From NCBI GenBank assembly GCA_934454655.1, contig CAKSFK010000001.1, positions 22,358-86,357 on the forward strand: a stretch of 64,000 bases of DNA. Direction: 5' to 3'. The translations under genes and the position numbers were made by a program. Source of the stretch: an uncultured Eubacteriales bacterium (GTDB lineage: Bacteria; Bacillota; Clostridia; Oscillospirales; Acutalibacteraceae). The notes beneath the pieces are model-generated. The model made no database searches. It was given only the letters and a program-made list of their open reading frames with translations, and was not told the origin of the DNA. Numbering within the stretch: position 1 is the first letter of the stretch; each line of letters begins with the position of its first letter. Below are positions 1 through 57,930 of the stretch, piece by piece.

Positions 1-159
1 GGCGCTTAGGTCCTTGCGGACCTGAACCTCGCCGAGTCCCAGTGCTCTTGCCAAAGAGGTTGCCGAAATATTCTCGGTGCCGTGGTAATTATTTTTAATA
101 TAATTCAAATAAACGGGTATTCGCCCGATAGTCGCCCTTGACACATAAGAGTTTTTCAT
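1..159 (-). CDS. rex: Redox-sensing transcriptional repressor Rex; only the N-terminal 53 codons are present because the gene runs off the left edge
   Basis: Hand translation from ATG (complement of 157-159) gives MKNSYVSRATIGRIPVYLNYIKNNYHGTENISATSLARALGLGEVQVRKDLSA. This fits the Rex winged-helix N-terminus pattern (R-x-P-x-Y..Y.., S-x-x-L-A, Q-x-R-K-D-L-S). It is absent from the ORF track because it is truncated. Confidence 0.6.
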   Translation of the reverse strand, partial: MKNSYVSRATIGRIPVYLNYIKNNYHGTENISATSLARALGLGEVQVRKDLSA

Positions 160-192: not shown

Positions 193-513
193 TTATGCGT
201 TTGCCGCCTCGCGCTTGCCGTCGGCAATTTCGTCCAGCTTTTTGTTTCTGAAATAAAGCGCTACATCTATTGAAATTTCAATAAAGTTAAGCACATAGAA
301 GAAAAAGCTTAAATAGAACAGGAATCCGCTGCTGCCGTCCGCAACCTGTATAAACTTTCTCGCGATTCCGCAAGCGTAGCCGATAAGCAAAAACACCTCA
401 AAAAAAAGGCTTTTGCCCTTTGCGGTGCGCGAAACAATGGATTTGCGAATGGAAATAGGCCACGAAAGCCCAAAGCAGAATATAGTCAGCGCTTCAAGTA
501 AATCGGTAATCAT
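193..513 (-). CDS. Small integral membrane protein (about 3 TM helices, possibly PQ-loop/SemiSWEET-like)
   Basis: The 106-aa ORF has three hydrophobic stretches (LEALTIFCFGLSW, FFEVFLLIGYACGIA, FLFYLSFFFYVLNFIEISI). A W-P-x-S-I-R-K-S segment follows TM1 and resembles a degenerate PQ motif. The family assignment is tentative. Confidence 0.45.
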   Translation of the reverse strand: MITDLLEALTIFCFGLSWPISIRKSIVSRTAKGKSLFFEVFLLIGYACGIARKFIQVADGSSGFLFYLSFFFYVLNFIEISIDVALYFRNKKLDEIADGKREAANA

Positions 514-568: not shown

Positions 569-2167
569 TTATTTTTGCCTTCTGTAATCAGGTAAAAGTT
601 TCGGAGATATGGCGTCGGTCTTAATGCCTGCCGCCTCGCGCTCGGCGTCAAATTTGTTAATGTGTTCAAGAGTTAATTTGCCCACCTTAACGTCCTTTGA
701 TTTTGCCGCCGCGTTTTTGCCCGCGGTTCTGCCGAATACGATTATATCAAGCAGAGAGTTGCCCATAAGGCGGTTTCTGCCGTGTATTCCGCCGACAGCC
801 TCGCCCGCAACATAAAGATTTTCAACGCAGGTGCTCATGCCCGTAACGTTAATATCTATACCGCCGTTCTGATAGTGCAGGGTCGGGTATACGAGTATCG
901 GCTCTTTGCGGATATCAATACCGTAGCTTGCAAACATACGCATCATAGCGGGTATTCTCTTTTCAATTGTGCCCTCGCCGCCGATTTTTTCAATCATCGG
1001 GGTATCAAGCCAAACCGCCTTGCCGCTGCCGGTGTCCACGCCCTCGTCGCGGTCGGAACATTCTCTTATGATAGAAGCCGCCGCAACATCGCGCGTTTCA
1101 AGCGGATGCATAAATACCTTACCGTCGCGGTTAACAAGCTTAGCACCCAATGAACGCACCTTTTCGGTAACAAGCGCGCCAAATATCTGCTGCGGGAAAG
1201 CCGCGCCCGTCGGGTGGTACTGAAGCGTATCGGCATACAAAAGCTTTGAGCCTACACGGTAAGCCAGCACCAGTCCGTCCGCCGTAGCGCCGTAGTGGTT
1301 AGAGGTTGGGAAGCCCTGATAGTGCATTCTGCCCGCTCCGCCCGTTGCAATAATAACGGTTTTAGCTCGCGCCACCATAAGCTCCTTGGTTTCCATATTC
1401 ATAAGCACAGCGCCCGCGGCGTTGCCGTTTTCATCAAGGATAAGCTCAATAGCCGAGGTGAAGTCCACAACCGGAATACCGCGGTTTAAAACCTCGTCGC
1501 GCAAGGTACGCATAATTTCGGCGCCCGAATAATCCTTTGCGGCGTGCATACGTTTTCTTGAAGTACCGCCGCCGTGGGTGGTAACCATTGTGCCGTCGGG
1601 CGTTTTATCAAACTCAACGCCCAGTTCATTAAGCCATTTAATAGCCTCGGGTGCGTCGCACACAAGCTTTGAAAGCAGTTCGCGCTTTGCCGCAAAATGT
1701 CCGCCGCCAAATGCGTCTACAAAGTGGATAGCCGGTGAATCGTTCGGCTTATCAGCCGCCTGAATACCGCCCTCAGCCATCATTGTGTTGGCGTCGCCTA
1801 TACGAAGCTTTGTGACTATCATAGTTTTAGCGCCGGCATTGTCAGCCTCAATTGCGGCAGACGCACCCGCGCCGCCTCCGCCGATTATAAGCACGTCAAC
1901 ATCATATGTAACATCGTTTAAATCAACATCGTCCGCCTTAATGCGGCTGTGCGCCTCAAGCATTTCGCACAGCTCGTGCGGCACCTGCTCACCCTTGTTA
2001 GGCCCTATTTTAAGGGTGGAAAACTCACTCTTTTTATAATCGGGGTGGTAAGCCGCCAAAAGGGCGTCCTTTTCGTCCGCGGTCATACGGCGCGGCTCTA
2101 ATGCAATGTTATCTTCTCTTGCAGCCTCAACCGCCTTTAAAGATTTTTCAAATTCTTTTGAATACAT
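569..2167 (-). CDS. Soluble fumarate reductase/succinate dehydrogenase-family flavoprotein (FrdA/TfrA-like, non-covalent FAD predicted)
   Basis: It has the dinucleotide fold DVLIIGGGGAGASAA, the active-site motif QYHPTG, and the C-terminal motif GGIHGRNRLMGNSLLD typical of the SdhA/FrdA/NadB family. The His that binds FAD covalently in SdhA/FrdA (R-S-H-T-x-A-A-x-G-G) is replaced here (GDANTMMAEGGI). It is the last gene of the hdr/flx operon. Confidence 0.8.
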   Translation of the reverse strand: MYSKEFEKSLKAVEAAREDNIALEPRRMTADEKDALLAAYHPDYKKSEFSTLKIGPNKGEQVPHELCEMLEAHSRIKADDVDLNDVTYDVDVLIIGGGGAGASAAIEADNAGAKTMIVTKLRIGDANTMMAEGGIQAADKPNDSPAIHFVDAFGGGHFAAKRELLSKLVCDAPEAIKWLNELGVEFDKTPDGTMVTTHGGGTSRKRMHAAKDYSGAEIMRTLRDEVLNRGIPVVDFTSAIELILDENGNAAGAVLMNMETKELMVARAKTVIIATGGAGRMHYQGFPTSNHYGATADGLVLAYRVGSKLLYADTLQYHPTGAAFPQQIFGALVTEKVRSLGAKLVNRDGKVFMHPLETRDVAAASIIRECSDRDEGVDTGSGKAVWLDTPMIEKIGGEGTIEKRIPAMMRMFASYGIDIRKEPILVYPTLHYQNGGIDINVTGMSTCVENLYVAGEAVGGIHGRNRLMGNSLLDIIVFGRTAGKNAAAKSKDVKVGKLTLEHINKFDAEREAAGIKTDAISPKLLPDYRRQK

Positions 2168-2182
2168 AATCTGCGCGCCTCC

Positions 2183-2857
2183 TTATTTCTCAATTTCGCG
2201 GTTGTTGTAAAGCTCTTTAAGTTCTTCAACCGGCTTGCCCATAAGCGACTCTATAATCTCGGTAAACGCGCCCTCTTTAATCTCTTCAACGCGTTTTTCT
2301 AAGTGTTCGGACTTAGGTTCTATATACTTGCCGTTAAGTCTGCGCGCGAGCATTGCAACCTGCGGATGCGAAATACCCGCAGGACAGCGCGAAGAGCACA
2401 CGCCGCACATAACGCAGTCGAACGATTCTTCGGCGCACTTATCAAATTCGCCGCGCTGAGCATACGCTATGTACTGCATAACGTTAAGCGACTGAGTACA
2501 GCTTTTTGTGCAGGCGTTACAGCCTACGCAGGCGTAAATTTCGGGGTAAAGCTGCATCATAATCTGTTCGGTAGGTTTAATTTTTTCAATATCGTAAACC
2601 TGTTTTACAAGCGGGAAGAAAGGCAGAGTTGCAACATACATATTGTTCTCAACCTTGGTCTGGCAGGCAAGGCAGGTTTTAAGCTCACGGTCGCCCTTTA
2701 TGCGGTAAATTGTGGCACATGCGCCGCAGAAACCGTTACGGCAGCCGCAGCCGCGCACCAGCTGATAGCCCGCGTATTCCATTGCGCGCATTATTGTAAG
2801 GTTATCCGGCACGCTGTATTTCTTGCCGAACAGGTAAACATCAACCATAGTATCCAT
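2183..2857 (-). CDS. Iron-sulfur subunit, SdhB/FrdB-like (N-terminal 2Fe-2S-type Cys cluster plus two CxxCxxCxxxC(P) clusters)
   Basis: CGCRNGFCGACATIY...C forms a plant-ferredoxin-like motif. CVGCNACTKSC and CVMCGVCSSRCP are cubane-cluster motifs. It lies 15 nt upstream of the flavoprotein gene. Confidence 0.7.
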   Translation of the reverse strand: MDTMVDVYLFGKKYSVPDNLTIMRAMEYAGYQLVRGCGCRNGFCGACATIYRIKGDRELKTCLACQTKVENNMYVATLPFFPLVKQVYDIEKIKPTEQIMMQLYPEIYACVGCNACTKSCTQSLNVMQYIAYAQRGEFDKCAEESFDCVMCGVCSSRCPAGISHPQVAMLARRLNGKYIEPKSEHLEKRVEEIKEGAFTEIIESLMGKPVEELKELYNNREIEK

Positions 2858-2879
2858 TTGTTTTCCTCCTTATTCCTTA

Positions 2880-3713
2880 TTAGTACTCGTCGGGCAGCTC
2901 GTCTATTTCGTCAAAGCGGAAAACGGGTCCGTCCTTGCAGACATATTTTGCGCCTATATTGCATCTGCCGCATTTGCCTATGCCGCACTTCATTCTAAGC
3001 TCCATCGTGGTGTAGACCTGAGTTTTATCAAAGCCCAGCTCCTGAAGCCCTGCAAGGGTGAACTTAATCATTATAGGCGGTCCGCAAAGTATGGCGATCT
3101 TATCGGTTGTAAAGCCCAGTTCCTTAACGTAATTCGGAACAAAGCCAACGTGACCGTCCCACTCGGGCTGTTCGCGGTCAATGGTAAGGTGAACATTTAC
3201 GCCTGTATCCTTTGCCCATTCGTCGATAATTTCCTTGTAGTCAACAAGGTCCTGCATACTGCGAGAGCCGTAAACTATGTCTATCTTGCCGTAGCGGTCA
3301 CGGTAGTGACGGCAGTAGTTAATAACCGAACGCAGAGGAGCCAAACCTATGCCGCCGGCAACGAAAAGCAGGTCGTGACCCGCAAATTCGGTGTCAACGG
3401 GGAAAGGTCTGCCGTAGGGTCCGCGAATGGTTATTTCCTGACCTACTTCCATTGAGTGCAGCCACTCTGTAACACAGCCGCATTTCTTAATTGAAAACTC
3501 CATAAACTCGGTGTTTGTGGGGGAAGATGTAATTGAGAACATAGCCTCGCCCACACCGGGAACGGAAAGCATAGCGCACTGACCCGGCATATGCTCAAAA
3601 GCCTTTTTGCCGTCCGGCGTTACAACGCGGAAGGTCTTAACATCGGGAGTATCTATCCTTATATCGGTAACAACGCCGATCTTCGGTATAAGCGGTTCTT
3701 TAATATCAGCCAT
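2880..3713 (-). CDS. flxA: FAD/NAD(P)H-binding oxidoreductase with C-terminal 2Fe-2S (FlxA / AsrB / HydG / PyrK-like)
   Basis: It has a ferredoxin-reductase-type fold (RPFPV.., LLFVAGGIGLAPL NAD(P)-binding motif). The C-terminal CGIGKCGRCNIG..YVCKDGPVF motif is typical of this family. Confidence 0.8.
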   Translation of the reverse strand: MADIKEPLIPKIGVVTDIRIDTPDVKTFRVVTPDGKKAFEHMPGQCAMLSVPGVGEAMFSITSSPTNTEFMEFSIKKCGCVTEWLHSMEVGQEITIRGPYGRPFPVDTEFAGHDLLFVAGGIGLAPLRSVINYCRHYRDRYGKIDIVYGSRSMQDLVDYKEIIDEWAKDTGVNVHLTIDREQPEWDGHVGFVPNYVKELGFTTDKIAILCGPPIMIKFTLAGLQELGFDKTQVYTTMELRMKCGIGKCGRCNIGAKYVCKDGPVFRFDEIDELPDEY

Positions 3714-4737
3714 TTGTGTTGCCCCCCAACTTTTTCATTACCTTTACAATGTTCATCTGTATCGGACATTTTGCAAGACATCTGCCGCAGCCCACGCAGG
3801 AGAACATACCGTCGTTATTAGTCGGGAAATACACAAGCTTGTGCATAAACCTCTGGCGAAAGCGCTCCAGCTGTGTAAGTCTTGGCTGACCCGCGGACAT
3901 TTTGGTAAATTCGGAATACATACAGGAATCCCAGCAGCGGAAACGCTTAACGCCGTGACCGGTGTTGAAGTCCTTAATATCGTAGCACTGGCAGGTGGGG
4001 CACACAAAGGTGCAGGTGCCGCAGCCAAGGCAGCTTTCGGAAAGTTCTTTCCACTCGGGGCGGTCGAAAAATTCCTTTGTTTTGCCGCTGCCGAATGCGT
4101 CGGCTTTAAGGCCCGCCAGCGGCAGTTTTGCCATACGCTCGCGCGTTACCTTTTGCTGCTCGGTAACTGCCTTATCATCGGCGTTTTCGGTAATGCCGTC
4201 AAGCGCCTTTAAAAGCTTTTCGCCCTTTTCGGTCCTAGCGTCCATATAAAGCGCGTCTTCTGTCTTATAGCATACCACATCGCCAGCAGGCTCTGCCGCA
4301 TCTATGCCGAAGGCGGTGCAGAAACAGGTTTCATTCGGCTTTGTGCAGGCAAGCGACATGATAACCCCGTGCTCGCGGCGGTTTTTATAATAGCTGTCCT
4401 GCGGCTCTGCCAAAAACACTTTATCAAGCACATCAAAGCTCTTAACATCACAGGCACGCACGCCGAAAACCACAAAATCCTCGGTTTCGCTGCGGGTGTC
4501 TATAACCTCGATTTTCTTGCCCTCAACCTTAAAATCCATAAGATTTTCGGTTTGGGGGAAGAAGAAATCCTTTGCGCTCCTTACGGTGTTAAGCGAATCG
4601 GACAGCTTTTTGCCGTTCTCCCATTCTTCATATTTCGCGCCTGTTTTGGTATCAACCGGCATATAAAGCACATTGTTTTCTGCAATGGCGGAGAAAAGCG
4701 AATCTAATTTTTCAAGCGATATTTTACGCATTTTCAT
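3706..4737 (-). CDS. flxB: 4Fe-4S cluster protein, FlxB / AsrA / sulfhydrogenase-beta-like
   Basis: Cys motifs are CTKPNETCFC, CLGCGTCTFVCPTCQC and CVGCGRCLAKCP. It overlaps flxA by 8 nt and flxC by 14 nt, which suggests translational coupling. Confidence 0.7.
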   Translation of the reverse strand: MKMRKISLEKLDSLFSAIAENNVLYMPVDTKTGAKYEEWENGKKLSDSLNTVRSAKDFFFPQTENLMDFKVEGKKIEVIDTRSETEDFVVFGVRACDVKSFDVLDKVFLAEPQDSYYKNRREHGVIMSLACTKPNETCFCTAFGIDAAEPAGDVVCYKTEDALYMDARTEKGEKLLKALDGITENADDKAVTEQQKVTRERMAKLPLAGLKADAFGSGKTKEFFDRPEWKELSESCLGCGTCTFVCPTCQCYDIKDFNTGHGVKRFRCWDSCMYSEFTKMSAGQPRLTQLERFRQRFMHKLVYFPTNNDGMFSCVGCGRCLAKCPIQMNIVKVMKKLGGNTNG

Positions 4738-5713
4738 TCCTCCTTACAGCGTCGCCGGGCTCAATATCCTCGGTGGTGTAGTTTACTATCGGGGCGCGCG
4801 AGCCTACCTCGGCTCCTGCCTGATATTCACCGTAAAAGCTGTCAATATCCTTTATAAACTTGCGGTTAAGCAGGTGCAGCGGAATGTGCTGGGGACATAC
4901 CCTTGAGCACTCGCCGCAATCGGTACATCTGCCCGCAACGTGGAAAGCGCGGATAATGTGGAACATTTTTTCTTCAAACTCGTTTGAAGCCGCCTTGTTT
5001 TCGACGCCTGAATTGGGGTTATCAAACACGCACTTTTCGCAGGTGCAGGCGGGGCAAACGTCGCGGCAGGCGTTACAGCGTATGCAGCGCGATAATTCGT
5101 TCTGCCAGAAAGCGAAACGCTCGTCGGGCGTCATTTTTTCAAGTTTTTCAACCTCATCAAAACGGTGTGAGTCAAGAACAGTCCCGTCCTCGCCCAAAAG
5201 CTCGTCGTAAGCCACATGCTTTTTGGATTTGCAGTTAAGACAGCGGTCGGGCAAAAGCTCGTTTCTGTCAAGCGTGATTTCACCGTCAAACAGGGTTTCT
5301 ATTGTCACTTTGTCGCCGTTATCGGTCACTTTTGCAATGCCTTCGGCACTGCTTTTTATTTTGCCCATATCAAGCATACCGTTACACGGAACGCCCACGG
5401 CGTAAACCTTTTCGCGGTCAAAGCGATGCTCGGTTAAAAGCTGATTAAAGCTGTATGTATCGCAGGGCTTTAAGAAAACAAGAACCTTGTTTTCGCTCTT
5501 TCCCGTTTCCTTTACAAGGTACTTTGAAAAGTTAGCGCCGCAAAAATCGCCCCATACAAACTCTTTTTCAATATCCTCGGCAGTAGTGAAAAGCGCGGGA
5601 GTGATATCGTAATCAAACTCGCCCTTTTTCCAACCGAAAACTCGGTCAACCGTGCCGTTTTTAAGCAATTCGGAGGCTTTATTTACTAAAACTTCGCGTT
5701 TTATTTCTTGCAT
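4724..5713 (-). CDS. flxC: 4Fe-4S cluster protein, FlxC-like (paralogue of the preceding FlxB-like protein)
   Basis: Cys motifs are CIRCNACRDVCPACTCEKC and CTDCGECSRVCP. The N-terminal LKPCDTYSF segment resembles that of FlxB. It overlaps both neighbours. Confidence 0.65.
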   Translation of the reverse strand: MQEIKREVLVNKASELLKNGTVDRVFGWKKGEFDYDITPALFTTAEDIEKEFVWGDFCGANFSKYLVKETGKSENKVLVFLKPCDTYSFNQLLTEHRFDREKVYAVGVPCNGMLDMGKIKSSAEGIAKVTDNGDKVTIETLFDGEITLDRNELLPDRCLNCKSKKHVAYDELLGEDGTVLDSHRFDEVEKLEKMTPDERFAFWQNELSRCIRCNACRDVCPACTCEKCVFDNPNSGVENKAASNEFEEKMFHIIRAFHVAGRCTDCGECSRVCPQHIPLHLLNRKFIKDIDSFYGEYQAGAEVGSRAPIVNYTTEDIEPGDAVRRNENA

Positions 5714-6135
5714 CTTAAATCCTCCAATCTCTTGTTTTCGCCAAGCGCCGCAACGGTCTTTGCAAAATCATTCATTGTGGCGGCAAACTTTGCGCCCTCT
5801 GCCGCGGATACCCACTCAACGCGGGTGCGTTCCTTTTCAATGCCTAAAAAGTCAAGCATTGAGAAAAGCAAAGCCATACGGCGGCGGGTGTAATAGTTAC
5901 CCGAGGTGTAGTGGCAGTCGCCGGGGTGGCAGCCGCAGAGAATTACGCCGTCTGCCCCGCGCTGAAACGCGCGTAAAATAAACATCGGGTTTACCCTGCA
6001 CGAGCAGGGAACACGGATTATTTTAACATCGGCAGGGTAATTAAGTCTGTTATTTCCCGCAAGGTCCGCTCCGGCATAGGAACACCAGTTGCAGCAAAAC
6101 GCCACTATAAGCGGCTTATATTCATTTACTTGCAT
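5701..6135 (-). CDS. mvhD: Methyl-viologen-reducing hydrogenase delta subunit homologue (MvhD/FlxD)
   Basis: It has the diagnostic N-terminus IVAFCCNWCSYAGADLAG followed by RVPCSCRV and ILCGCHPGDCHY. It is 144 aa and overlaps hdrA by 10 nt. Confidence 0.85.
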   Translation of the reverse strand: MQVNEYKPLIVAFCCNWCSYAGADLAGNNRLNYPADVKIIRVPCSCRVNPMFILRAFQRGADGVILCGCHPGDCHYTSGNYYTRRRMALLFSMLDFLGIEKERTRVEWVSAAEGAKFAATMNDFAKTVAALGENKRLEDLRCKK

Positions 6136-8120
6136 ATCGCGTCTACCTCCGCCATAATCTGTTTATTCATAAAGCCCTTTAAGTCCATAGCGCCGGACAT
6201 ACAGGCAACCGTACAAGCGCCGCAACCCTGGCACACAGCCTCGTTTACAACCGCTACGCGGCGGACTTTTGTGGTTCTGTCGGGCATTCTGAATTCTTTT
6301 TCAACATAGGAAATCGCGCCGTAGGGGCAAACCTTTTCGCAGGTTGAGCAGCCGTTGCACATCATCTCGTCCGAGTGCGCGACGCACGGGTTACCCGTAA
6401 GCTTATCTTTACAGAGGAGTCCTATAACCTTAGAGGCAGCCGCTCCCGCCTGGGAAACGGTTTCGGGTATATCCTTAGGACCTTGGCATGTACCCGAAAG
6501 GAACACGCCCGCAGTGGGGCTTTCAACCGGGCGAAGCTTGGGGTGCGCCTCGGTAAAGAAGTCGTTTGTATCCATACTGGCAGTAAGCATTGTAGCAAGC
6601 GGACGGGCGGATTTATCCGGCTCGATAGCGGCGGCAAGCACCACTAAGTCGGCGTCTATATGCAGCTGTTTGCCGTAAATTAAATCGGAGCCCTGTACTT
6701 TTAGCTTATTGCCCTCGGGAGAAACCTTGCCGACCATACCCTTTATGTAGTGAACGCCGTATTCCTCAACCGCGCGGCGGTAGAACTCATCAAAGTTTTT
6801 GCCGGGGGTACGCACGTCTATATAGAATACATAAACTTCGGTATCGGGGTATTTATCCCTTATAAGCATTGCGTGCTTTGCGGTATACATACAGCAAATC
6901 TTAGAGCAATATTCCTTGCCCTTTTCGGAGCAGGCCTCGCACCTTGAGCCCACGCACTGAACAAATACTATTGTGTGCGGATGCTCCCGGTCTGACGGGC
7001 GCAAAAGCGTACCGCCCGTAGGACCTGCCGCGTTCATAAGGCGCTCTAATTCAAGCGAGGTTATAACGTCTTTGGACTGTGAGTACGCAAACTCATCAAA
7101 CTTCTCCATAGAAATGGGGTTAAAGCCTGTTGCGACTACTATTGCGCCGTACTTTTCCTTAACGAACTCGTCCTTTGCCTCGTAATCGATAGCGCCGGCG
7201 GAGCATACCTTAGAGCAAACGCCGCACTTGCCCGTTTTAAGCTTCATACAGTGATTCGGGTCGATAGTAGCGACCTTCGGCACTGCCTGAGCAAAAGGAA
7301 TATAAATAGCACTGCGGTTATCCATACCGAGGTTAAACTCGTTGGGAACCTTTTTCTGCGGACATTTTTCGGTGCAAAGTCCGCAGCCGGTGCATATATC
7401 CTCTTTAACATAACGCGCGCGGCGCTTGATTGTAACCTCAAAGTTACCCACAAATCCGCCCACCTCGGTTACCTCCGAGTATGAGAAGATGCGGATTTTA
7501 TCGTTCTGCGCCACATCCACCATTTTAGGCGTTAAAATACAGGCGGCGCAGTCAAGCGTGGGGAAAGTTTTATCAAGCTGAGCCATTTTGCCGCCTATTG
7601 TCGGCTTGGTTTCAACTATATCAACGGGGAAGCCCGCGTCGGCAATGTCAAGCGCGGTCTGAATGCCCGCAATACCGCCGCCTATAACCAAGGCGCGCTT
7701 TGTAACAGGGCTTTCGCCCGGGGTGAGCGGCGCGTTAAGGTTTACCTTTGCAACCGCCGCTTTGGCAAGTATGATTGCCTTTTCGGTGCCTATGGGCATT
7801 TCTTTATGTACCCAAGAACATTGCTCGCGGATATTTGCAATCTCCACCATATAGGGGTTAAGCCCCGCGGCAGCCGCGGTCTTGCGGAATGTGGCTTCGT
7901 GCATACGGGGAGAGCATGAACATACCACAATGCCCGTAAGCTTATACTCGGCTATTGCGTTTTTAATGATCTCCTGACCCGCCTGTGAGCACATATACTG
8001 ATAATCGGTGGAGAAAACAACACCGGGTTCATTTTTAATAGCGTCCGCAACGGCTTTAACATCAACGGTTCCCGCAATGTTTGTGCCGCAGTGACATACG
8101 AATACTCCGATTCTTTGCAT
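6126..8120 (-). CDS. hdrA: Heterodisulfide reductase subunit A-like flavoprotein (HdrA)
   Basis: It has the N-terminal GVFVCHCGTNI motif and the FAD fold ALVIGGGIAGIQTALDIADAG. Several ferredoxin motifs are present (CTGCGLCTEKCP, CGVCSKVCS, CNGCSTCEKVCP, CQGCGACTVAC). Length is 664 aa. Confidence 0.9.
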   Translation of the reverse strand: MQRIGVFVCHCGTNIAGTVDVKAVADAIKNEPGVVFSTDYQYMCSQAGQEIIKNAIAEYKLTGIVVCSCSPRMHEATFRKTAAAAGLNPYMVEIANIREQCSWVHKEMPIGTEKAIILAKAAVAKVNLNAPLTPGESPVTKRALVIGGGIAGIQTALDIADAGFPVDIVETKPTIGGKMAQLDKTFPTLDCAACILTPKMVDVAQNDKIRIFSYSEVTEVGGFVGNFEVTIKRRARYVKEDICTGCGLCTEKCPQKKVPNEFNLGMDNRSAIYIPFAQAVPKVATIDPNHCMKLKTGKCGVCSKVCSAGAIDYEAKDEFVKEKYGAIVVATGFNPISMEKFDEFAYSQSKDVITSLELERLMNAAGPTGGTLLRPSDREHPHTIVFVQCVGSRCEACSEKGKEYCSKICCMYTAKHAMLIRDKYPDTEVYVFYIDVRTPGKNFDEFYRRAVEEYGVHYIKGMVGKVSPEGNKLKVQGSDLIYGKQLHIDADLVVLAAAIEPDKSARPLATMLTASMDTNDFFTEAHPKLRPVESPTAGVFLSGTCQGPKDIPETVSQAGAAASKVIGLLCKDKLTGNPCVAHSDEMMCNGCSTCEKVCPYGAISYVEKEFRMPDRTTKVRRVAVVNEAVCQGCGACTVACMSGAMDLKGFMNKQIMAEVDAICK

Positions 8121-8138
8121 AAGTTATTTTCTCCTTTC

Positions 8139-8531
8139 TTATTTGGAATATTTACGCATGGCGCTCATAATCGCCTGCTGGGGAATATCATCATTGATTT
8201 TTTCGGGAATATCGTTTGCGGTCATATGATTGTTTCCCTTTTGGCGGATAACCTCAAGGCGCACCGCTTCAATAATCTTTGCCGGCTCCACACCGCGGGG
8301 ACAGCGCTCAACGCAGGCAAAGCAGGAAAGACATTTGTAAACCGATTCCGATTTCATAAGGGTTTCAATATCGCCCGTTTCCACCATATAAACAAACTGG
8401 TGGGGATGATATTCCATTTCATCATACGAAGGGCAGGTACCCGAGCATTTGCCGCAGCGCATACATTTAAGAGGATTAACGCCGCTCGCTCTTATAACCT
8501 GTTCCTTTAAAAGCTCTTTTTTATCAGTCAT
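8139..8531 (-). CDS. hdrC: Heterodisulfide reductase subunit C-like (HdrC)
   Basis: The 130-aa protein has two cluster motifs, CMRCGKCSGTCP and CLSCFACVERCP. It overlaps hdrB by 8 nt. Confidence 0.8.
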   Translation of the reverse strand: MTDKKELLKEQVIRASGVNPLKCMRCGKCSGTCPSYDEMEYHPHQFVYMVETGDIETLMKSESVYKCLSCFACVERCPRGVEPAKIIEAVRLEVIRQKGNNHMTANDIPEKINDDIPQQAIMSAMRKYSK

Positions 8532-9330
8532 TTGTATCCTCCTTTACGCCGAGGGCTTCAGCCAATAATTCCGTGAAGTACACAATCGGTATATTACTGC
8601 CGTTATGCACTAAGTTGTACTTGCAAAGCGGACATGCGGTAACCGCCAGCTCCGCGCCGTGGCTTTCGGCGCTGTTTGTGACGGAGTTGCTTTTGCGGCG
8701 GGCGCTCTCGGGGTCCTCAAGCGCAACGTAACCGCCGCAGCACTCGTTCCTGTAAGGGTAAATTACGGGTTCTGCGCCCAATGCCCTTATAAAATCCTCC
8801 ATAATTTTCGGATTTTCGGGGTCGTCAAACGCCATTACCTTGCCGGGGCGCAAAAGCAGACAGCCGTAATAAGCGGCAATTTTTCTGCCCGTTAATGGGT
8901 TTACAACCTTTTCTTTGATTTTATCAAAACCCACAACGTCACGCAAAAGCTCTAAATAGTGCATAACCTTTGCCTCGCCCGAATAAGGCTCTCTTTTTTC
9001 CTTATCCTGTGAAAGATACAGGTTAGCGCGGTTTCTGAAGGTTTCGTCGTTCGCTATTTGATAATTCGTTTGTTTAATAACGTTATGGCAGGCGGAACAT
9101 ACCGTGACAAGGGGTCTGTCCGCCTCTTTAGCGGCTATAAGCGCACGAACCGAGGAAAGCTTTGAGGCTATCTCGTCGTTATTGCTTACAAACACGCCGC
9201 CGCAGCACTGCCAGTTCTCTATCTCGCATAATTCAACGCCCAAAACCTCGGCGCATCTGCGGGCATAAAGGTCAAGCTGTTTGGCTTTTGTGCGGAGCGT
9301 GCAGCCGGGAAAATAACTGACCTTAATCAT
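8524..9330 (-). CDS. hdrB: Heterodisulfide reductase subunit B-like (HdrB, two CCG domains)
   Basis: Two CCG-domain signatures are present: FPGC...WQCCGG...CSAC and YYGC...NECCGG...CPLC. Confidence 0.85.
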   Translation of the reverse strand: MIKVSYFPGCTLRTKAKQLDLYARRCAEVLGVELCEIENWQCCGGVFVSNNDEIASKLSSVRALIAAKEADRPLVTVCSACHNVIKQTNYQIANDETFRNRANLYLSQDKEKREPYSGEAKVMHYLELLRDVVGFDKIKEKVVNPLTGRKIAAYYGCLLLRPGKVMAFDDPENPKIMEDFIRALGAEPVIYPYRNECCGGYVALEDPESARRKSNSVTNSAESHGAELAVTACPLCKYNLVHNGSNIPIVYFTELLAEALGVKEDTND

Positions 9331-9351
9331 TATTTTTCCTCCCTGAAAAAA

Positions 9352-10728
9352 TTAAACCATCTGCTCGGGGTGGAATACCTCGTCAAACTTTTCTTCGGTT
9401 AAAAAGCCCAATTCCACACATGCCTGTTTTAAGGAGATATTGTCCTTAAACGCCTTTTTGGCGGTCTTTGCCGCGTTTTCATAACCGATATAGGGGTTAA
9501 GCGCGGTAACAAGCATAAGCGAATTGTGCAGATTGTGATACATTTTGTCCTTATTTGCGGTAATTCCCACGGCGCACTTGTTGTTGAAGGAAACAATAGC
9601 TTCAGCAAGCAAACGGGCTGACTGTAAGAAGTTGTAAGCCGCAACCGGCATAAATACGTTAAGCTCAAAATTGCCCTGCGACGCCGCAATACCGACAGCC
9701 ACATCGTTACCCATTACCTGAACGGCAACCATTGTTACCGCCTCGCACTGGGTGGGGTTTACCTTGCCGGGCATTATTGAAGAACCGGGCTCGTTTTCGG
9801 GAATATGGATTTCACCGAGTCCGTCGCGCGGGCCGGAAGCCAGCCAGCGAACGTCGTTCGCAATCTTCATCATATCGCAGGCGGCGGCCTTGATTGCGCC
9901 GTGCGCGAAAACAAATTCGTCCTTTGAAGTAAGGGCGTGGAATTTATTTGCGGCGGTTACAAACGGCTTGCCCGTAAGTTCGGCTACCTTTTTTGCCACA
10001 AGCTCCGAAAAGCCTTTCGGCGCGTTAAGCCCCGTGCCGACGGCGGTGCCGCCGAGAGCCAACTCATAAAGCGGCTTAACGGCTGTTTTTAGAAGCTGAG
10101 CATCACGTTCAAGACTTGCCCTCCAGCCCGATATTTCCTGACTGAATTTAATAGGTGTGGCGTCCTGCAAATGGGTTCTGCCCGATTTTACAATGCCCTC
10201 GTTTTCAGCCTCTAATTTTTTAAAGGTGTTTATTAACAGCTCTATTGCCGGCAAAAGCTTATCCTCAATAGCTATAACCGCCGAGATGTGCATAGCGGTG
10301 GGGAAGGTATCATTTGAGGACTGGCTCATATTAATATCGTCGTTCGGGTGGCAAAGCTTTTCACCCGCAATCTGGTTGGCGCGGTTTGCGATAACCTCGT
10401 TTGCGTTCATATTGGACTGCGTACCCGAACCCGTCTGCCAGACAACAAGCGGAAAATGGTCGTTAAGACTGCCCGATATTACCTCGTCGCAGGCGGCGGA
10501 AATGGCTTTCACCTTCTGCGCCGTCATTTTTTCGGGCTTTAATTCCGCATTGGCAAGCGCCGCCGCTTTTTTAAGTATTCCGAAAGCGTGGGTTATTTCA
10601 CGCGGCATTGTTTCAATGCCTACGCCTATTTCAAAGTTTTCGTGGCTTCTTTCGGTCTGTGCCGCCCAAAGTCTGTCGGCAGGGACCTTCATTTCGCCCA
10701 TTGAATCGTGTTCTATACGGTATTCCAT
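9352..10728 (-). CDS. fumC: Class II fumarate hydratase
   Basis: It is a full-length 458-aa match to the FumC pattern, including the signature GSSIMPGKVNPTQCEA. Confidence 0.95.
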   Translation of the reverse strand: MEYRIEHDSMGEMKVPADRLWAAQTERSHENFEIGVGIETMPREITHAFGILKKAAALANAELKPEKMTAQKVKAISAACDEVISGSLNDHFPLVVWQTGSGTQSNMNANEVIANRANQIAGEKLCHPNDDINMSQSSNDTFPTAMHISAVIAIEDKLLPAIELLINTFKKLEAENEGIVKSGRTHLQDATPIKFSQEISGWRASLERDAQLLKTAVKPLYELALGGTAVGTGLNAPKGFSELVAKKVAELTGKPFVTAANKFHALTSKDEFVFAHGAIKAAACDMMKIANDVRWLASGPRDGLGEIHIPENEPGSSIMPGKVNPTQCEAVTMVAVQVMGNDVAVGIAASQGNFELNVFMPVAAYNFLQSARLLAEAIVSFNNKCAVGITANKDKMYHNLHNSLMLVTALNPYIGYENAAKTAKKAFKDNISLKQACVELGFLTEEKFDEVFHPEQMV

Positions 10729-10741
10729 TAAAGCTTACCCC

Positions 10742-11686
10742 TTATATTTCAAGATTACTTATAACATCTTTTAATGTATCCGCGCTCTTGCGTAAAAGCA
10801 TTACCTCTTCATCGGTCATAGGAACGTTAACCTTGCCTCTTACTCCCTCGTGACCTACCATATTAAGGGTGCTGAGCGCTACGTCCTCAATGCCGTACTC
10901 GCCGTGCATCATTGTGGAAACGGTCATTGTGGTATCAATTCCGCCGAGCAGGCACTTGCAGATATGACATACGGAAACCGAAACGGCATAGAATGTTGCG
11001 CCCTTTCTTGCAATAACGCGCGCGCCGGATTTTCTTACGTACTGCTCGATCTCGCCGAAGTCAAGCTCGGGTGTGTTGATGCCGGGGGTGGTTATAAGCT
11101 TTTTGCAATCCTTTATCGGAACGTTGGAGATGTTGGCAACCGACCACGGAATAAACGAAGAATCGCCGTGTTCGCCGAAAACATAAGCGTGAACGTTGCT
11201 CTGGTTGATGTTGTAATACTCCGAAAGTCTTGAACGCAGACGCGCGGTATCAAGAATTGTACCCGAACCGATTATGCGGTTTTCGGGAAGTCCCGACATT
11301 TTATAGAAAGTATATGTGAGAATATCAACCGGGTTGCTTACTATAATATAAGTTGCGTCCGGCGCGTACTTTGTAATTTCGGGGATAATCTGTTTTGTAA
11401 TGTTAACGTTGGTCTGGGCTAGCTCAAGGCGTGACTGACCGGGCTTTCTTGCGATACCCGAGGTTACTATTACAATGTCGGAGTTTACCGCGTCGCGGTA
11501 ATCGCCCGCGTAAATTGAGCAAGCGCCGCAAAAAGGCGTACCCTGGCGGATGTCGAGCGCTTCGCCCAAAGCTTTTTCGTTATTGATGTCTATCATAACG
11601 ATTTCCGAGGCAAGACCCATTACTGTAAGCGTGTAAGCGATGGTGGAACCGACGCTTCCGGTTCCGATGATTGATACTTTGTTCAT
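10742..11686 (-). CDS. mdh: LDH-like malate dehydrogenase (Arg at the substrate-discriminating position)
   Basis: It has the Rossmann motif IIGTGSVGST and the catalytic FGEHGDS. The loop GIARKPGQSR places Arg immediately before KPG, as in MDH (xPRKPG); L-LDH has Gln there (ARQKPG). It is the first gene of the operon. Confidence 0.75.
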   Translation of the reverse strand: MNKVSIIGTGSVGSTIAYTLTVMGLASEIVMIDINNEKALGEALDIRQGTPFCGACSIYAGDYRDAVNSDIVIVTSGIARKPGQSRLELAQTNVNITKQIIPEITKYAPDATYIIVSNPVDILTYTFYKMSGLPENRIIGSGTILDTARLRSRLSEYYNINQSNVHAYVFGEHGDSSFIPWSVANISNVPIKDCKKLITTPGINTPELDFGEIEQYVRKSGARVIARKGATFYAVSVSVCHICKCLLGGIDTTMTVSTMMHGEYGIEDVALSTLNMVGHEGVRGKVNVPMTDEEVMLLRKSADTLKDVISNLEI

Positions 11687-11719
11687 TGCAAACCTTCCCT
11701 ATTCTACATAGTTTGATTT

Positions 11720-11748
11720 ATTATAACATCTTTTGCGAGGTATTGCAA
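11720..11748 (-). promoter_or_regulatory. Sigma-A promoter of the mdh-fumC-hdr-flx-frd operon
   Basis: On the minus strand: TTGCAA (11748-11743), a 17 nt spacer, then TATAAT (11725-11720). An AGGGAAGG Shine-Dalgarno lies upstream of the mdh ATG. Confidence 0.55.
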
Positions 11749-11905
11749 TTATATGTTTTGCATATCGGTAATGTATTTATCGATATACCGAGGTATAATA
11801 TAAATTTACTGAACATACGCCCGTAATTTATCAATATGTCACAAATCCGCACCCTTTTTGCCGCGAAGCGTGCGGCAAAGCCGTCAGACTTTTAAATTTC
11901 CGTGG

Positions 11906-11954: not shown

Positions 11955-12182
11955 TTATGTAAGCTTACCGATTATCAGTCTTGCGTTTTCAAGAAAAAGA
12001 TTACTGTACTGCTCCGCCATATCACAAAGCAGGGTTTCACAGCACTCGAAGCTTTCGGGACTGAAATTCGGCGTGAGGGCTGACTTTTTATCGCTGTAAG
12101 CCTTTAAAAGCATATATGTGTTTTTGAGTTCGCAAATTGCCCAAAGCATTTCCGAAAAATTATCTTCGCACACATTCATCAT
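11955..12182 (-). CDS. Hypothetical small acidic Cys-rich protein (about 75 aa), divergent from an XRE regulator
   Basis: The track ORF is 11955-12221. A minus-strand promoter sits just upstream: TTGAAT (12221-12216), 17 nt, TATAAT (12198-12193). GGAG is then followed by ATGATG at 12182. The bidirectional terminator follows the stop. No family was recognised. Confidence 0.4.
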   Translation of the reverse strand: MMNVCEDNFSEMLWAICELKNTYMLLKAYSDKKSALTPNFSPESFECCETLLCDMAEQYSNLFLENARLIIGKLT

Positions 12183-12279
12183 CTCCGATATAATTATAGG
12201 TTCATATCTCGACCAATTCAAGGGTTAATTTATGAACCGTGATATAATCGTATATATTTATAAAAAAGAGTGAAAAATT

Positions 12280-12504
12280 ATGAAGAAATATAGCGAAATA
12301 TTGAAAGAACTGCGCGAGGATAACGACCTTACTCAACAGCAGGTGGCGGATATTCTAAACACAACCAGAAGCTACTACGGTCAGTATGAACGCGGTGTAA
12401 GACCGTTGCCGTTGGAGCATTTGGTCACTTTATGCAATTACTATAAGGTTTCAGCCGATTATATTCTCGGTCTGCCGTTCGGTCGGAAATACCCCAAAAG
12501 ATAA
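12280..12504 (+). CDS. XRE-family helix-turn-helix transcriptional regulator
   Basis: The HTH_3 pattern is LTQQQVADILNTTRSYYGQYERGVRPLPLEHLVTLCNYYKVSADYILG. An extended -10 (TGATATAAT) lies upstream. Confidence 0.85.
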   Translation: MKKYSEILKELREDNDLTQQQVADILNTTRSYYGQYERGVRPLPLEHLVTLCNYYKVSADYILGLPFGRKYPKR

Positions 12505-12527: not shown

Positions 12528-13385
12528 TTAGTGTGACAGGACTCCGCCCACGACGCTGCAAATAAAAAACGCCGCCATATCGGCTGCCGCAACCGTAGGT
12601 CCTACGGGCGTTGAGAACAAAACCGAAAGAAAAATACCCAAAAGCGCGCACACGGCGGAAAGCGCGGCGGCAAAAACCGTTACGGGCAAAAAGCTTTTAA
12701 AAATACGCATAGCGCTGAGCGCGGGGAAAATTATAAGCGCGGTTATAAGCAGCGAACCCACAAGGTTCATTGCAAGCACGATTATCACCGCGGTTATTAC
12801 CGCCGTCATAAGATTGTAAGCGTCGGCATTTATGCCCGAAGCCCGAGCAAAATCCTCATCAAAGGTAACGGCGAATATTTTGCCGTAAAACAAAACAAAA
12901 ACCGCAATAACAACAACCGAAAGCAAAACGCAGAGCCACACTTCACCCGGGGAAAGGGTCAATATTGAGGTTGAGCCGAAAAGACTGCCGCAAACATCGC
13001 CCGATACGTTCGACGAGGTTGAAAACAGGCTTAACAGCAAATAGCCCACGGCAAGCGCCCCCACCGAGATCATCGCAATTGCGGCGTCGCCCTTTATTGC
13101 CTTAGCCTTACCGCCCTTAAGCAGCAGCACGGCGCTTATGACCGTAACGGGCATAACAACAAACATACTGTCGGAAACATTGAGCACCGCCGCCACGGCA
13201 AGCGCGCCGAAAGCCACGTGAGAAAGCCCGTCGCCGATAAATGAAAATCTTTTGAGAACGAGCGTTACCCCCATAAGCGCCGAGCAGAGAGAAATAAGCA
13301 CGGCAACAATAACGGCGTAACGCACAAACGGATATTCAAGATAACCGAATATTTTAACGGCACCCGCCGCAACACCGAGGTTCAT
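12528..13385 (-). CDS. znuB: Metal (zinc/manganese) ABC transporter permease
   Basis: It is a polytopic membrane protein of the ZnuB/TroCD type. It overlaps znuC by 4 nt. Confidence 0.8.
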   Translation of the reverse strand: MNLGVAAGAVKIFGYLEYPFVRYAVIVAVLISLCSALMGVTLVLKRFSFIGDGLSHVAFGALAVAAVLNVSDSMFVVMPVTVISAVLLLKGGKAKAIKGDAAIAMISVGALAVGYLLLSLFSTSSNVSGDVCGSLFGSTSILTLSPGEVWLCVLLSVVVIAVFVLFYGKIFAVTFDEDFARASGINADAYNLMTAVITAVIIVLAMNLVGSLLITALIIFPALSAMRIFKSFLPVTVFAAALSAVCALLGIFLSVLFSTPVGPTVAAADMAAFFICSVVGGVLSH

Positions 13386-14059
13386 TTTAAGTCACCCTTC
13401 CTTTCGGCAAATTCGTCACGCGTACCGAAAAACACGGTTTTCCCCATATAAAGAATATGGGTTGCGTAACAAAGCGCCGCCGATATATCGTGCGTTACGG
13501 TTATCACCGTAAGCCCGTTTCGGTTAAGCTTTTCCGTAAGGCTGTACATCAAAGCGGCGGAAGCTTCGTCAAGTCCCGTAACGGGTTCGTCAAGCAAAAG
13601 AACCTCATCCGCCGCGCAAAGCGCGCGGGCAAGCAGCGCGCGCTGCTGCTGACCGCCCGAAAGCTCACGGAAACAGCGTCCCGCCAGCGGCATTATCTGC
13701 ATTTTCTCCATATTGTCGCGCGCTCTTTTTTTGTCCTCGGCTGAGTAAAACGGGCGGAATTTATATCTTCCCGCATTGCCCGACATTACAATTTCCTTAA
13801 CCGACGCGGGAAAATCGCGCTGAAGCTCGGTCTGCTGCGGCAGGTATCCCACCCTTCCGCGGCTGCCGCCCGAAAATACAATTTCACCGCCGAACGGCTT
13901 TACAAGCCCGGCAAGCGCCTTTATAAGCGTGGATTTGCCCGAACCGTTCTCGCCTATAATGCAAAGGTAATCCCCCGCGTTAAGCTTAAAATCAATATTC
14001 TCCGCGACGGTTCTCCCGCCGTAGCCCAGCCTTAAATTTTCAACCTTTAAAACACACAT
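13382..14059 (-). CDS. znuC: Metal ABC transporter ATP-binding protein
   Basis: It has Walker A GENGSGKST, the signature LSGGQQQR and Walker B LLLDEP. Confidence 0.85.
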   Translation of the reverse strand: MCVLKVENLRLGYGGRTVAENIDFKLNAGDYLCIIGENGSGKSTLIKALAGLVKPFGGEIVFSGGSRGRVGYLPQQTELQRDFPASVKEIVMSGNAGRYKFRPFYSAEDKKRARDNMEKMQIMPLAGRCFRELSGGQQQRALLARALCAADEVLLLDEPVTGLDEASAALMYSLTEKLNRNGLTVITVTHDISAALCYATHILYMGKTVFFGTRDEFAERKGDLK

Positions 14060-15000: not shown

Positions 15001-15014
15001 CTTTATCTCCAAAA

Positions 15015-15029
15015 TGCAAATCGTTTGCA
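15015..15029. promoter_or_regulatory. Candidate metalloregulator (Zur-like) operator
   Basis: TGCAAATCGTTTGCA is a perfect 6-3-6 palindrome. It lies between the -10 box and the SD of znuA. Confidence 0.4.
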
Positions 15030-15033
15030 AATT

Positions 15034-31230: not shown

Positions 31231-31235
31231 TGTTA

Positions 31236-31817
31236 TCAGCCCCCTATTCCGGCAAATCCCAAGAACGAAAGCGAAACGAGCGCCGCCGCCACAAGGGTTA
31301 TGGGAAGTCCCTTTAGAAATTCGGGTATATCGGAGGTTTCCATTCTTTCCCGCACACCCGAAAACAGGAGCATTGCAAGCATAAAGCCGAGCCCCGCGCC
31401 CAGCGCGTTTACAAGTGATTTAACAAAGCCGAGCCCGTTTGTGATGTTAAGCATTGTAATACCCAGAACCGCGCAGTTTGTGGTTATAAGCGGCAGGTAA
31501 ATGCCGAGCGAATTGTATATCGGCTTTATGTAGCGCTTTAACACTATTTCAATCAGCTGAACTATCGCGGCGATTACCAGAATAAACACAATGGTTTCAA
31601 GATATGTATAGTGGGGATACAATAAAAAGTGATATATAGGCCACGTAACGGCGGAGGACACCACCATTACAAGCGTTACGGCAATGCTCATTGAAAGGGC
31701 GGTGTCGGTTTTTTTGGAAACGCCCAAAAAAGGACATATCCCCAAAAACTTTGAAAGCACCATATTGTTTGTAAGAATTGCCGCAAGCAATACGGAAGCA
31801 ACGGAAGTACTATTCAC
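31236..31817 (-). CDS. rnfA: Rnf complex subunit A
   Basis: It is a 193-aa polytopic protein with NN.VL..FLG.CPFLGVS and ITTNCA.LG. Confidence 0.9.
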   Translation of the reverse strand: MNSTSVASVLLAAILTNNMVLSKFLGICPFLGVSKKTDTALSMSIAVTLVMVVSSAVTWPIYHFLLYPHYTYLETIVFILVIAAIVQLIEIVLKRYIKPIYNSLGIYLPLITTNCAVLGITMLNITNGLGFVKSLVNALGAGLGFMLAMLLFSGVRERMETSDIPEFLKGLPITLVAAALVSLSFLGFAGIGG

Positions 31818-44188: not shown

Positions 44189-44264
<76 letters not shown>

Positions 44265-57826: not shown

Positions 57827-57930
57827 TTTTATACGATTTCGGGAGGCAACTTTATGATATTATTAACCAAACGATGGCGACGGTGCGATTTTTCTTAAAA
57901 AAACTTAAAATAAAAAAGGAGAAATTCACA

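Follow-up and report, generated by a model that had tools for sequence, protein, structure and literature searches.

Eleven co-oriented genes on the minus strand of the stretch analyzed here, a 64,000-nt window of a contig from an uncultured Eubacteriales bacterium (Acutalibacteraceae), are best read as encoding an electron-bifurcating NADH:fumarate/ferredoxin oxidoreductase, an assignment to which we give even chances. The open reading frames (ORFs) span 569–11686 of the operon region 569–11748, all positions being those of the window, and code in the direction of transcription for a malate dehydrogenase-like protein (Mdh), a class II fumarase (FumC), HdrB, HdrC, HdrA, MvhD/FlxD, FlxC, FlxB, FlxA, and the Fe-S (iron-sulfur) and flavoprotein subunits of a fumarate reductase-like enzyme, FrdB and FrdA. 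On the best reading, these genes provide the reductive branch from oxaloacetate through malate and fumarate to succinate, with the last step performed by a soluble multi-subunit complex. The assignment draws on gene content, sequence motifs, catalytic residues and conserved synteny. An earlier account made from the letters alone, the sequence-only reading, had described the same eleven-gene unit in the same order; its coordinates match ours, and each of its domain calls was reproduced with Pfam and NCBIfam. Its five junction overlaps of 8–14 nt were also measured again, at 8 nt for hdrB/hdrC, 10 for hdrA/mvhD, 13 for mvhD/flxC, 14 for flxC/flxB, and 8 for flxB/flxA. The remaining junctions are gaps of 13–22 nt, and all eleven ORFs begin with an ATG preceded by a Shine-Dalgarno sequence.

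The gene order is conserved among relatives. A scan of GTDB species representatives gave at least 591 matches, a figure that is not the number of operon-bearing species, as other FAD_binding_2 enzymes fit the scan patterns too. The best 80 matches, with flavoprotein identities of 74–99%, were examined. The core, nine genes in the order hdrBCA-mvhD-flxCBA-frdBA, is colinear in 56 of the 57 loci whose upstream sequence extends for 7.7 kb or more. In the 53 loci with 10 kb upstream, fumC occurs 50 times and mdh 46 times; in two loci the operon starts at hdrB. The linkage of mdh and fumC to hdr, flx and frd, which the sequence-only reading had staked on conservation in relatives, is thus borne out. 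The closest GTDB locus belongs to Ruminococcaceae bacterium UBA5891 (99% identity), and a cultured strain, Yeguia hominis NSJ-40 (L014, 89% identity), carries all 11 genes. An identical flavoprotein occurs on gut metagenome contigs with the same operon, and homologs of about 90% identity are very abundant in metagenome-assembled genomes (MAGs) of gut Clostridia. Most species that carry the core are Oscillospirales-type MAGs from human, rumen or other animal gut. The MAG records of two operon contigs (L071 and L079) carry the names 'Treponema sp.' and 'Bacteroides uniformis', which probably reflect a binning error and not the true distribution.

The last gene of the operon (569–2167, minus strand) encodes a TfrA-like fumarate-reductase flavoprotein of 532 amino acids, with FAD_binding_2 over residues 91–472. 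Its placement relies on hidden Markov model (HMM) bit scores and Foldseek ranks, used as a proxy for a labelled tree. The best-scoring family is TfrA (NF004900, 330 bits against a cut-off of 718, covering model positions 5–413 of 546), followed by SdhA/FrdA (TIGR01812, 283 bits; cut-off 567) and NadB (TIGR00551, 266 bits; cut-off 453), and the Pfam search gave no Succ_DH_flav_C domain. An AlphaFold2 model (pLDDT 83.4, pTM 0.87) retrieves E. coli FrdA as its best Foldseek match (E 4e-29), with NadB at rank 41, behind FrdA and SdhA. Alignments with solved SdhA structures and family members place a full catalytic set at His318 (in HPT), Thr334/Glu335, Arg359, His431, and Arg466; bacterial and archaeal members show no variation at these residues apart from Glu335, which at least 90% of them retain. 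The clade also has an invariant Asn127 at the alignment position of the His in the AHT/SHT motif, to which flavin adenine dinucleotide (FAD) is covalently bound in SdhA proteins, and the FAD is therefore predicted to be bound non-covalently. Absence of this His is typical of one-way fumarate reducers such as Fcc3 and NadB. Residues 1–87 form a conserved, confidently modelled helical N-terminal extension with the motif HPDY...G.N.GE. Members from bacteria and archaea share this extension, which TfrA, FrdA, and NadB lack; it may substitute for the missing C-terminal domain or serve as a docking surface. As judged from these features, the flavoprotein is a distinct TfrA-like clade and not a canonical FrdA/SdhA. 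Neither canonical FrdA/SdhA nor TfrA itself was accepted as its identity, in view of the scores below cut-off and of the missing covalent-FAD His and C-terminal domain. The label 'SdhA/FrdA-family' of the sequence-only reading hence holds for FAD_binding_2 and the catalytic residues, but not for Succ_DH_flav_C or for any family cut-off, and 'TfrA-like' describes the protein better.

Directly upstream, frdB (2183–2857, minus strand) encodes a FrdB-like Fe-S subunit of 224 amino acids with Fer2_4/Fer2 and Fer4 domains. It bears an SdhB-type CX4CX2C...C motif for a 2Fe-2S cluster and two CxxCxxCxxxC motifs for 4Fe-4S clusters, the second of which (CxxCxxCxxxCP) has four Cys and thus a 4Fe-4S site at the position where quinone-linked enzymes have 3Fe-4S. 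These motifs support the earlier call of an SdhB/FrdB-like protein, although the family matches are weak: 38 bits to the N-terminal half of TfrB (19–184), 29 bits to dhsB, and weak SdhB matches in the PDB. FrdB carries no CCG domain. A natural FrdB-FrdA fusion of 727 amino acids (P0123; L090, 5250–7433), alone on its contig, implies that FrdB and FrdA act as a unit and is counted in favor of the bifurcating fumarate reductase. Another family member (P0405) is annotated in Prochlorococcus sp. MIT 1201.

The first two genes are consistent with fumarate as the substrate. FumC (9352–10728, minus strand; 458 amino acids, Lyase_1 and FumaraseC_C) matches TIGR00979 over its full length with 700.1 bits, above the cut-off of 664.75, and by this measure is a bona fide class II fumarase. 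The 314-residue product of mdh (10742–11686, minus strand; Ldh_1_N/C) passes the NCBIfam cut-offs for L-lactate dehydrogenase (L-LDH; NF000824, TIGR01771) and falls narrowly under that for malate dehydrogenase (MDH; NF004863, 274.9 bits against 283). Its specificity loop, GIARKPGQSR, places an Arg at the position of LDH Gln102, and this Arg recurs in the loop GANRKPGETR of the top-scoring PDB entry, C. thermocellum 1y6j. Q102R is the established switch from LDH to MDH specificity. Because of the loop Arg and the genomic context, the first gene most likely encodes an LDH-like malate dehydrogenase; L-LDH was rejected as the likely function in view of Arg at 102 and of the pairing of mdh with fumC in the 46 loci counted above. 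The sequence-only call of an MDH-type dehydrogenase is therefore refined and not overturned, in that Arg102 supports it while NCBIfam scores the protein as an L-LDH. A bathyarchaeial locus (L086) has malic enzyme and a class I fumarase followed by frdBA, with a CCG protein nearby. Class I fumarase is not homologous to FumC, and its position beside frdBA gives independent support for fumarate as the substrate.

A substrate other than fumarate, whether L-aspartate as for NadB or another enoate or dicarboxylate, with Mdh and FumC as neighbors for some other reason, is very unlikely. The idea gains from the fact that the flavoprotein reaches none of the three curated cut-offs (TfrA 330/718, SdhA/FrdA 283/567, NadB 266/453), from the N-terminal extension and missing C-terminal domain that mark it as a distinct clade, and from the established knowledge that FAD_binding_2 enzymes of gut bacteria reduce many different substrates. 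It has to contend with the conservation of all dicarboxylate-binding and catalytic residues, with an Fe-S partner that is obligatory, unlike in NadB, and with a clade that adjoins two non-homologous fumarases in different domains of life, together with Mdh or malic enzyme. Moreover, Pseudoclostridium thermosuccinogenes, which is described with apparently the same operon, makes succinate. The grouping with L-aspartate oxidase against which the sequence-only reading had cautioned is not favored; a NadB-like function was rejected on the lower HMM score and Foldseek rank, the Fe-S partner, and the gene context, and no nadA, nadC or other nad genes were found nearby.

Between fumC and frdB lie seven genes in which every component of an Hdr/Flx module is present and intact. 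HdrB (8524–9330, minus strand; 268 amino acids) has two Pfam CCG domains with complete cysteine motifs (Cys10, 42/43, 78, 81 and 157, 197/198, 233, 236); it aligns with the solved HdrB 7bkb_B at 116 bits and also matches SdhE and the C-terminal CCG half of TfrB (263–486). HdrC (8139–8531, minus strand; 130 amino acids, Fer4_8/17) is a 2x[4Fe-4S] protein with two CxxCxxCxxxCP motifs. HdrA (6126–8120, minus strand), the putative bifurcating flavoprotein, is full length at 664 amino acids, scores 791 bits with the HdrA2 model, and aligns with the solved HdrA 5odc_A at 679 bits, residues 3–661 corresponding to 5–648. Both the inserted and the C-terminal ferredoxin domains are present, with Fer4 at 233–323 and 581–654. 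MvhD/FlxD (5701–6135, minus strand; 144 amino acids) matches PF02662 FlpD at 185 bits. The FlxC-like Fe-S protein (4724–5713, minus strand; 329 amino acids) shows 4Fe-4S dicluster domains and Cys clusters and matches generic Fe-S domains only. The FlxB-like Fe-S protein (3706–4737, minus strand; 343 amino acids, Fer4_22) is a relative of sulfhydrogenase beta and AsrA, with matches to ShyB (1.4e-55), HydB (4e-51), and AsrA (8e-44) that all fall below cut-off. The FlxA-like protein (2880–3713, minus strand; 277 amino acids) combines FAD_binding_6, NAD_binding_1, and DHODB_Fe-S_bind, which mark it as an FAD/NAD(P)H 2Fe-2S protein and the presumed entry point of NADH, and it also matches sulfhydrogenase gamma and AsrB. 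The locus accordingly holds what defines FlxABCD-HdrABC: a full-length HdrA, a two-CCG HdrB with HdrC, and FlxA, HydB-like FlxB/FlxC, and an MvhD-like FlxD.

In the proposed mechanism, Mdh and FumC would supply fumarate, and NADH would be oxidized by FlxA through its FAD and 2Fe-2S cluster. Electrons would pass via FlxB/FlxC and FlxD (MvhD) to the FAD of full-length HdrA, where the pair would be split. One electron would travel uphill through the ferredoxin-like domains of HdrA to ferredoxin (Fd), and the other downhill from HdrC to the CCG clusters of HdrB, on to FrdB (2Fe-2S and 2x4Fe-4S), and through the FAD of the TfrA-like flavoprotein to fumarate. The net reaction would be 2 NADH + Fd(ox) + fumarate -> 2 NAD+ + Fd(red) + succinate, and Rnf would reoxidize ferredoxin and thereby conserve energy. 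HdrC/HdrB, FrdB, and FrdA would in effect be a thiol:fumarate reductase in 'split' form, with a CCG module that is connected to HdrA and does not oxidize free thiols. Since FrdB corresponds to the N-terminal half of TfrB and HdrB to its C-terminal half, a chain from CCG to SdhB-like Fe-S clusters already exists within one polypeptide. We infer a physical complex, direct transfer from HdrB to FrdB, NADH as the donor, and the reduction of ferredoxin.

The redox context of the window is in keeping with this scheme. An rnfCDGEAB operon for ferredoxin:NAD+ oxidoreductase (30454–35332, minus strand), with Pfam matches for all six subunits, lies about 20 kb from the fumarate-reductase operon and is the presumed sink for reduced ferredoxin. 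Upstream of rnf lie a MatE transporter gene (35356–36687) and a histidine kinase gene (36726–38255). Directly downstream of the operon is the 5' end of rex (1–159, minus strand; PF06971, 55 bits), cut by the window edge and matching the start of the 202-residue Rex of a related locus (L002). Rex is a redox repressor that senses NADH/NAD+. Its gene adjoins the operon in 17 loci, 12 times downstream and 5 times upstream; in L083 it lies at 219–860. Of 49 relatives, 10 have sites that resemble the Rex box upstream of the operon, and L054 has a perfect one, TTGTTAATTTATTAACAA.

Relatives in other lineages show how the fumarate reductase pair is combined with different partners. The nearest 50%-identity cluster, at 55% identity, is archaeal, and an Asgard locus (L087, 2563–11656) has the order hdrA-mvhD-mvhG-mvhA-hycI-hdrC-hdrB-frdB-frdA, with identities to the window of 51% for HdrA, 57% for MvhD, 33% for HdrC, 42% for HdrB, 55% for FrdB, and 58% for FrdA. 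The Asgard hdrA carries an in-frame stop, and a selenocysteine HdrA has been reported for Asgards (PMC9723677); the stop is thus probably a selenocysteine codon. The presence of orthologous Hdr and Frd genes beside Mvh argues that the Hdr–Frd link is kept across domains while the electron input differs, H2 in one case and NADH in the other, and gene content at this locus suggests an H2-dependent version of the same enzyme together with inter-domain transfer.

Several observations weigh against a bifurcating fumarate reductase in the window. HdrB (141.6 against 345 for the methanogen HdrB equivalog), HdrC (66 bits against 160 for TIGR03290), and the flavoprotein all lie under the cut-offs of curated families. 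HdrB retains every cysteine of a functional disulfide-reducing site, which leaves room for a thiol/disulfide intermediate. FrdBA occurs in other settings: in marine Gammaproteobacteria (L088/L089, 9366–12891) frdB-frdA is followed by a NuoF-like gene (Complex1_51K), in other lineages frdBA stands alone or fused, and the sole exception to the synteny of the core, a Congzhengia locus (L065, 8079–11967), consists of a CitMHS-family transporter gene, frdB, frdA, and the small membrane protein gene, with no Hdr/Flx within 10 kb. Neither the gammaproteobacterial nor the solitary or fused frdBA loci have Hdr/Flx, so FrdBA does not depend on Hdr, and HdrA could simply pass electrons to it without bifurcation. 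The gammaproteobacterial loci come from Thiotrichales-type MAGs and look like a simpler, three-subunit NADH:fumarate reductase. No Rex box was found in the window, its own operon promoter included, with up to two mismatches allowed, though relatives have such boxes. Finally, a literature search for a characterized bifurcating or Flx-Hdr fumarate reductase, or for a description of one from the gut, found only the two proposals discussed below.

The FrdBA loci bear on the possibility that the enzyme is a non-bifurcating NADH (or ferredoxin):fumarate reductase, in which Hdr/Flx would merely feed FrdBA without reducing ferredoxin or conserving additional energy. The pairing of FrdBA with a simple NuoF-like subunit in marine Gammaproteobacteria and its solitary occurrence elsewhere speak for this possibility, as does the established thermodynamics by which uncoupled electron transfer from NADH to fumarate is strongly exergonic. 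We nevertheless consider it unlikely, given that a seven-gene Hdr/Flx set, costly when compared with a single NuoF-like subunit, is kept in 56 of 57 species, that HdrA is full length with both ferredoxin-type domains, and that Rnf is present in the window. To our knowledge, every characterized full-length HdrA complex bifurcates (Mvh-Hdr, Fdh-Hdr, and HdrA2B2C2).

The intact cysteines of both HdrB CCG motifs bear instead on a pair of enzymes joined by a thiol/disulfide carrier, in which Flx-Hdr would reduce some disulfide and bifurcate to ferredoxin, a scheme put forward for Desulfovibrio, and a Tfr-like enzyme would reoxidize the thiols with fumarate. TfrAB of methanogens is known to use the thiols of coenzymes M and B (CoM-SH and CoB-SH). 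The authors who described the P. thermosuccinogenes operon likewise phrase the link as one via thiols (PMC7282089). Such an arrangement is quite improbable in the window, where FrdB has no CCG domain and HdrB, as the only thiol/disulfide site of the operon, would need to produce the thiols and use them up again. In addition, the operon has no conserved gene for a carrier or for thiol biosynthesis, and hdrC-hdrB of the Asgard locus directly adjoin frdB-frdA, as in a split TfrB.

Set against these alternatives, the NADH-in, HdrA-bifurcating, fumarate-and-ferredoxin-out scheme of the sequence-only reading fits the gene content, the synteny, the Asgard and bathyarchaeial loci, the FrdB-FrdA fusion, Rnf, and rex, but bifurcation, and even fumarate as the substrate, are points that we infer. 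Judged from its gene neighborhoods, FrdBA is a portable terminal module for which Hdr appears as one of several donors. A broader proposal, to which we assign somewhat less than even chances, is that FrdBA together with HdrBC forms a portable 'fumarate terminal module' for HdrA-based bifurcating complexes, combined with Flx and NADH in many gut and rumen Clostridia and with MvhADG and H2 in Asgard archaea. If so, flavin-based electron bifurcation would have its first class with fumarate as the high-potential acceptor, and fumarate 'respiration' via ferredoxin and Rnf would conserve energy in fermenters that lack quinones and possibly in Asgard archaea as well.

The solubility of the complex has to be considered in light of a small gene that directly follows frdA (193–513, minus strand) and encodes an accessory membrane protein of 106 amino acids with three predicted transmembrane (TM) helices. 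Searches of Pfam and NCBIfam gave no significant match to the protein, even with E up to 5. In 25 of 89 loci its gene is the next one after frdA, and its product is 42% identical to that of the ORF after frdBA in a distant locus (L091, 6042–6362) from a lineage with no Hdr/Flx, from which it appears that the small membrane protein travels with FrdBA. A role as dicarboxylate transporter or anchor is conceivable; assignment to the PQ-loop/SemiSWEET proteins or to the anchors of complex II was rejected on the missing family match and the restriction to 25 of the 89 loci. The 'no membrane anchor' of the sequence-only reading stands insofar as no SdhC/D or FrdC/D families were found, but it has to be qualified by the conservation of this three-TM gene. 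That FrdBA is attached to the membrane through the protein and linked to quinone, like classical complex II, is extremely improbable. A three-TM protein of SdhC/D-like size after frdA, in a distant lineage as well, would suit such a role, but the protein is absent in 64 of the 89 loci, including that of cultured Yeguia hominis, shows no similarity to SdhC/D or FrdC/D families, and would have to work with a FrdB whose four-Cys 4Fe-4S site replaces 3Fe-4S.

Expression of the operon probably starts at a sigma-70-type promoter, TTGCAA-17-(TG)TATAAT (11720–11748, minus strand), which has 10 of 12 consensus matches. The promoter named in the sequence-only reading is therefore present, with a TG extension in addition. 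It lies 34 nt 5' of the mdh ATG, in the sole sizeable intergenic gap of the operon region, is preceded by a terminator at 11925–11913, and keeps its -10 element in relatives. Matches to the promoter consensus are not enriched across the region (20 against 15.3 +/- 3.4 in shuffled sequence), and its credibility comes from its position in the long gap, shortly before the ATG and after a terminator, and not from the number of matches. Directly 5' of the -35 hexamer is a 26-nt operator-like motif, TATATCGATAAATACATTACCGATAT (11762–11787, minus strand), which occurs as a single copy in the window with 0 expected by chance. The motif has the same relative position in five relatives (L006, L009, L022, L035, and L038) and degenerate copies in three others (L014, L044, and L010), and is a candidate operator for some regulator. 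At the other end of the operon, a hairpin between frdA and the small membrane-protein gene (529–560) could act as a partial terminator.

Beyond the promoter, a divergent pair of genes lies between the operon and a Znu-type ABC transporter (12528–15030). One (11955–12221, minus strand) is an 88-residue ORF that matches nothing in Pfam or NCBIfam and has a terminator after it; the other (12280–12504, plus strand) encodes a 74-residue helix-turn-helix protein of the XRE family. Elsewhere, the window holds a tRNA gene (44192–44264, minus strand) and a T-box leader (57554–57802, plus strand; 104 bits) upstream of an ABC substrate-binding protein gene (57874–58890).

The enzyme type is one that has already been predicted in two papers, and the window is a well-supported new case of it from an abundant gut lineage. 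A 'succinate operon' of P. thermosuccinogenes (CDQ83_RS03315-RS03365), with a fumarate hydratase gene, seven genes for Flx-Hdr, two for fumarate reductase, and one for a hypothetical protein, was described by Koendjbiharie et al. 2020 (PMC7282089), who found it co-regulated in RNA-seq and reported that H2 abolishes succinate formation. A bifurcating fumarate reductase that couples succinate formation to ferredoxin reduction is proposed in the same article, which cites Koendjbiharie & van Kranenburg 2019 (10.20944/preprints201912.0288.v1). Rubin-Blum et al. 2019 (PMC6315080) found tfrAB interspersed with flxABCD-hdrABC in gammaproteobacterial reductive tricarboxylic acid (rTCA) cycle clusters and proposed a complex. 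The novelty implied by the sequence-only reading therefore does not hold, given that both this operon type with bifurcation (PMC7282089) and the link between tfrAB and flx-hdr (PMC6315080) had been put forward. Its statement that no bacterial Hdr/Flx-linked fumarate reductase has been biochemically characterized appears correct from the literature and from PDB sequence searches with HdrA, HdrB, and FrdB, which returned no bacterial Flx-Hdr complex. Added here are the cross-domain evidence for modularity and a cultured strain that carries the operon. If bifurcation is true, fumarate would be a further entry in the short list of high-potential acceptors of flavin-based electron bifurcation, which includes crotonyl-CoA, caffeyl-CoA, and heterodisulfide, and the gain of energy from succinate formation in quinone-free Clostridia would be explained. 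The enzyme could contribute to the succinate, NADH, and ferredoxin balance of the gut. The Asgard Mvh-Hdr-Frd cluster suggests the same chemistry with H2 as the donor and calls into question the routine annotation of archaeal members as CoM/CoB-dependent thiol:fumarate reductases.

By its published description, the succinate operon of P. thermosuccinogenes resembles the window in the gene order after mdh and in its proposed function; the window differs by the 5' mdh and by its mesophilic gut host of the Oscillospirales type. In the tubeworm symbionts and Thioflavicoccus mobilis, again compared by description, a Tfr-type reductase is genetically linked to Flx-Hdr as in the window, but in an autotrophic rTCA context with korABCD and aclAB. 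FlxABCD-HdrABC of Desulfovibrio vulgaris, reportedly described by Ramos et al. in 2015, has the same seven protein types, whereas the gene blocks of the window stand in the opposite order (hdrBCA-flxDCBA), with mdh, fumC, and frdBA as neighbors in place of adh. The proposed high-potential acceptor also differs, being fumarate via FrdBA in the window and the DsrC disulfide in D. vulgaris, and we know of no biochemical demonstration of NADH-dependent, acceptor-coupled ferredoxin reduction for the Desulfovibrio complex either.

TfrAB, the thiol:fumarate reductase of Methanothermobacter said to have been described by Heim et al. in 1998, is related to the window through TfrA, the best-scoring family for the flavoprotein, and the window enzyme, like TfrAB, is probably soluble and quinone-independent. 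TfrB is a single polypeptide with an SdhB-like part and two CCG domains, which in the window is split into frdB and hdrB genes 5.7 kb apart. Compared with TfrA, the window flavoprotein has no counterpart to the C-terminal ~130 residues and has the 87-residue N-terminal extension in addition, and its likely electron source is HdrA, in contrast to CoM-SH and CoB-SH for TfrAB. FrdABCD/SdhABCD share with the window the flavoprotein fold, the catalytic residues, and the SdhB-like 2Fe-2S motif, but the covalent-FAD His, Succ_DH_flav_C, and recognizable anchor subunits are absent from the window, in which 4Fe-4S replaces 3Fe-4S. MvhADG-HdrABC of methanogens (5odc, 7bkb, 8rvu) shares the full-length HdrA, HdrB, MvhD, and the bifurcating architecture; its donor is H2 via MvhAG and its acceptor CoM-S-S-CoB, whereas in the window these would be NADH via Flx and fumarate via FrdBA. 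The Asgard locus combines the two designs, joining MvhADG-HdrABC to a frdBA of the window type.

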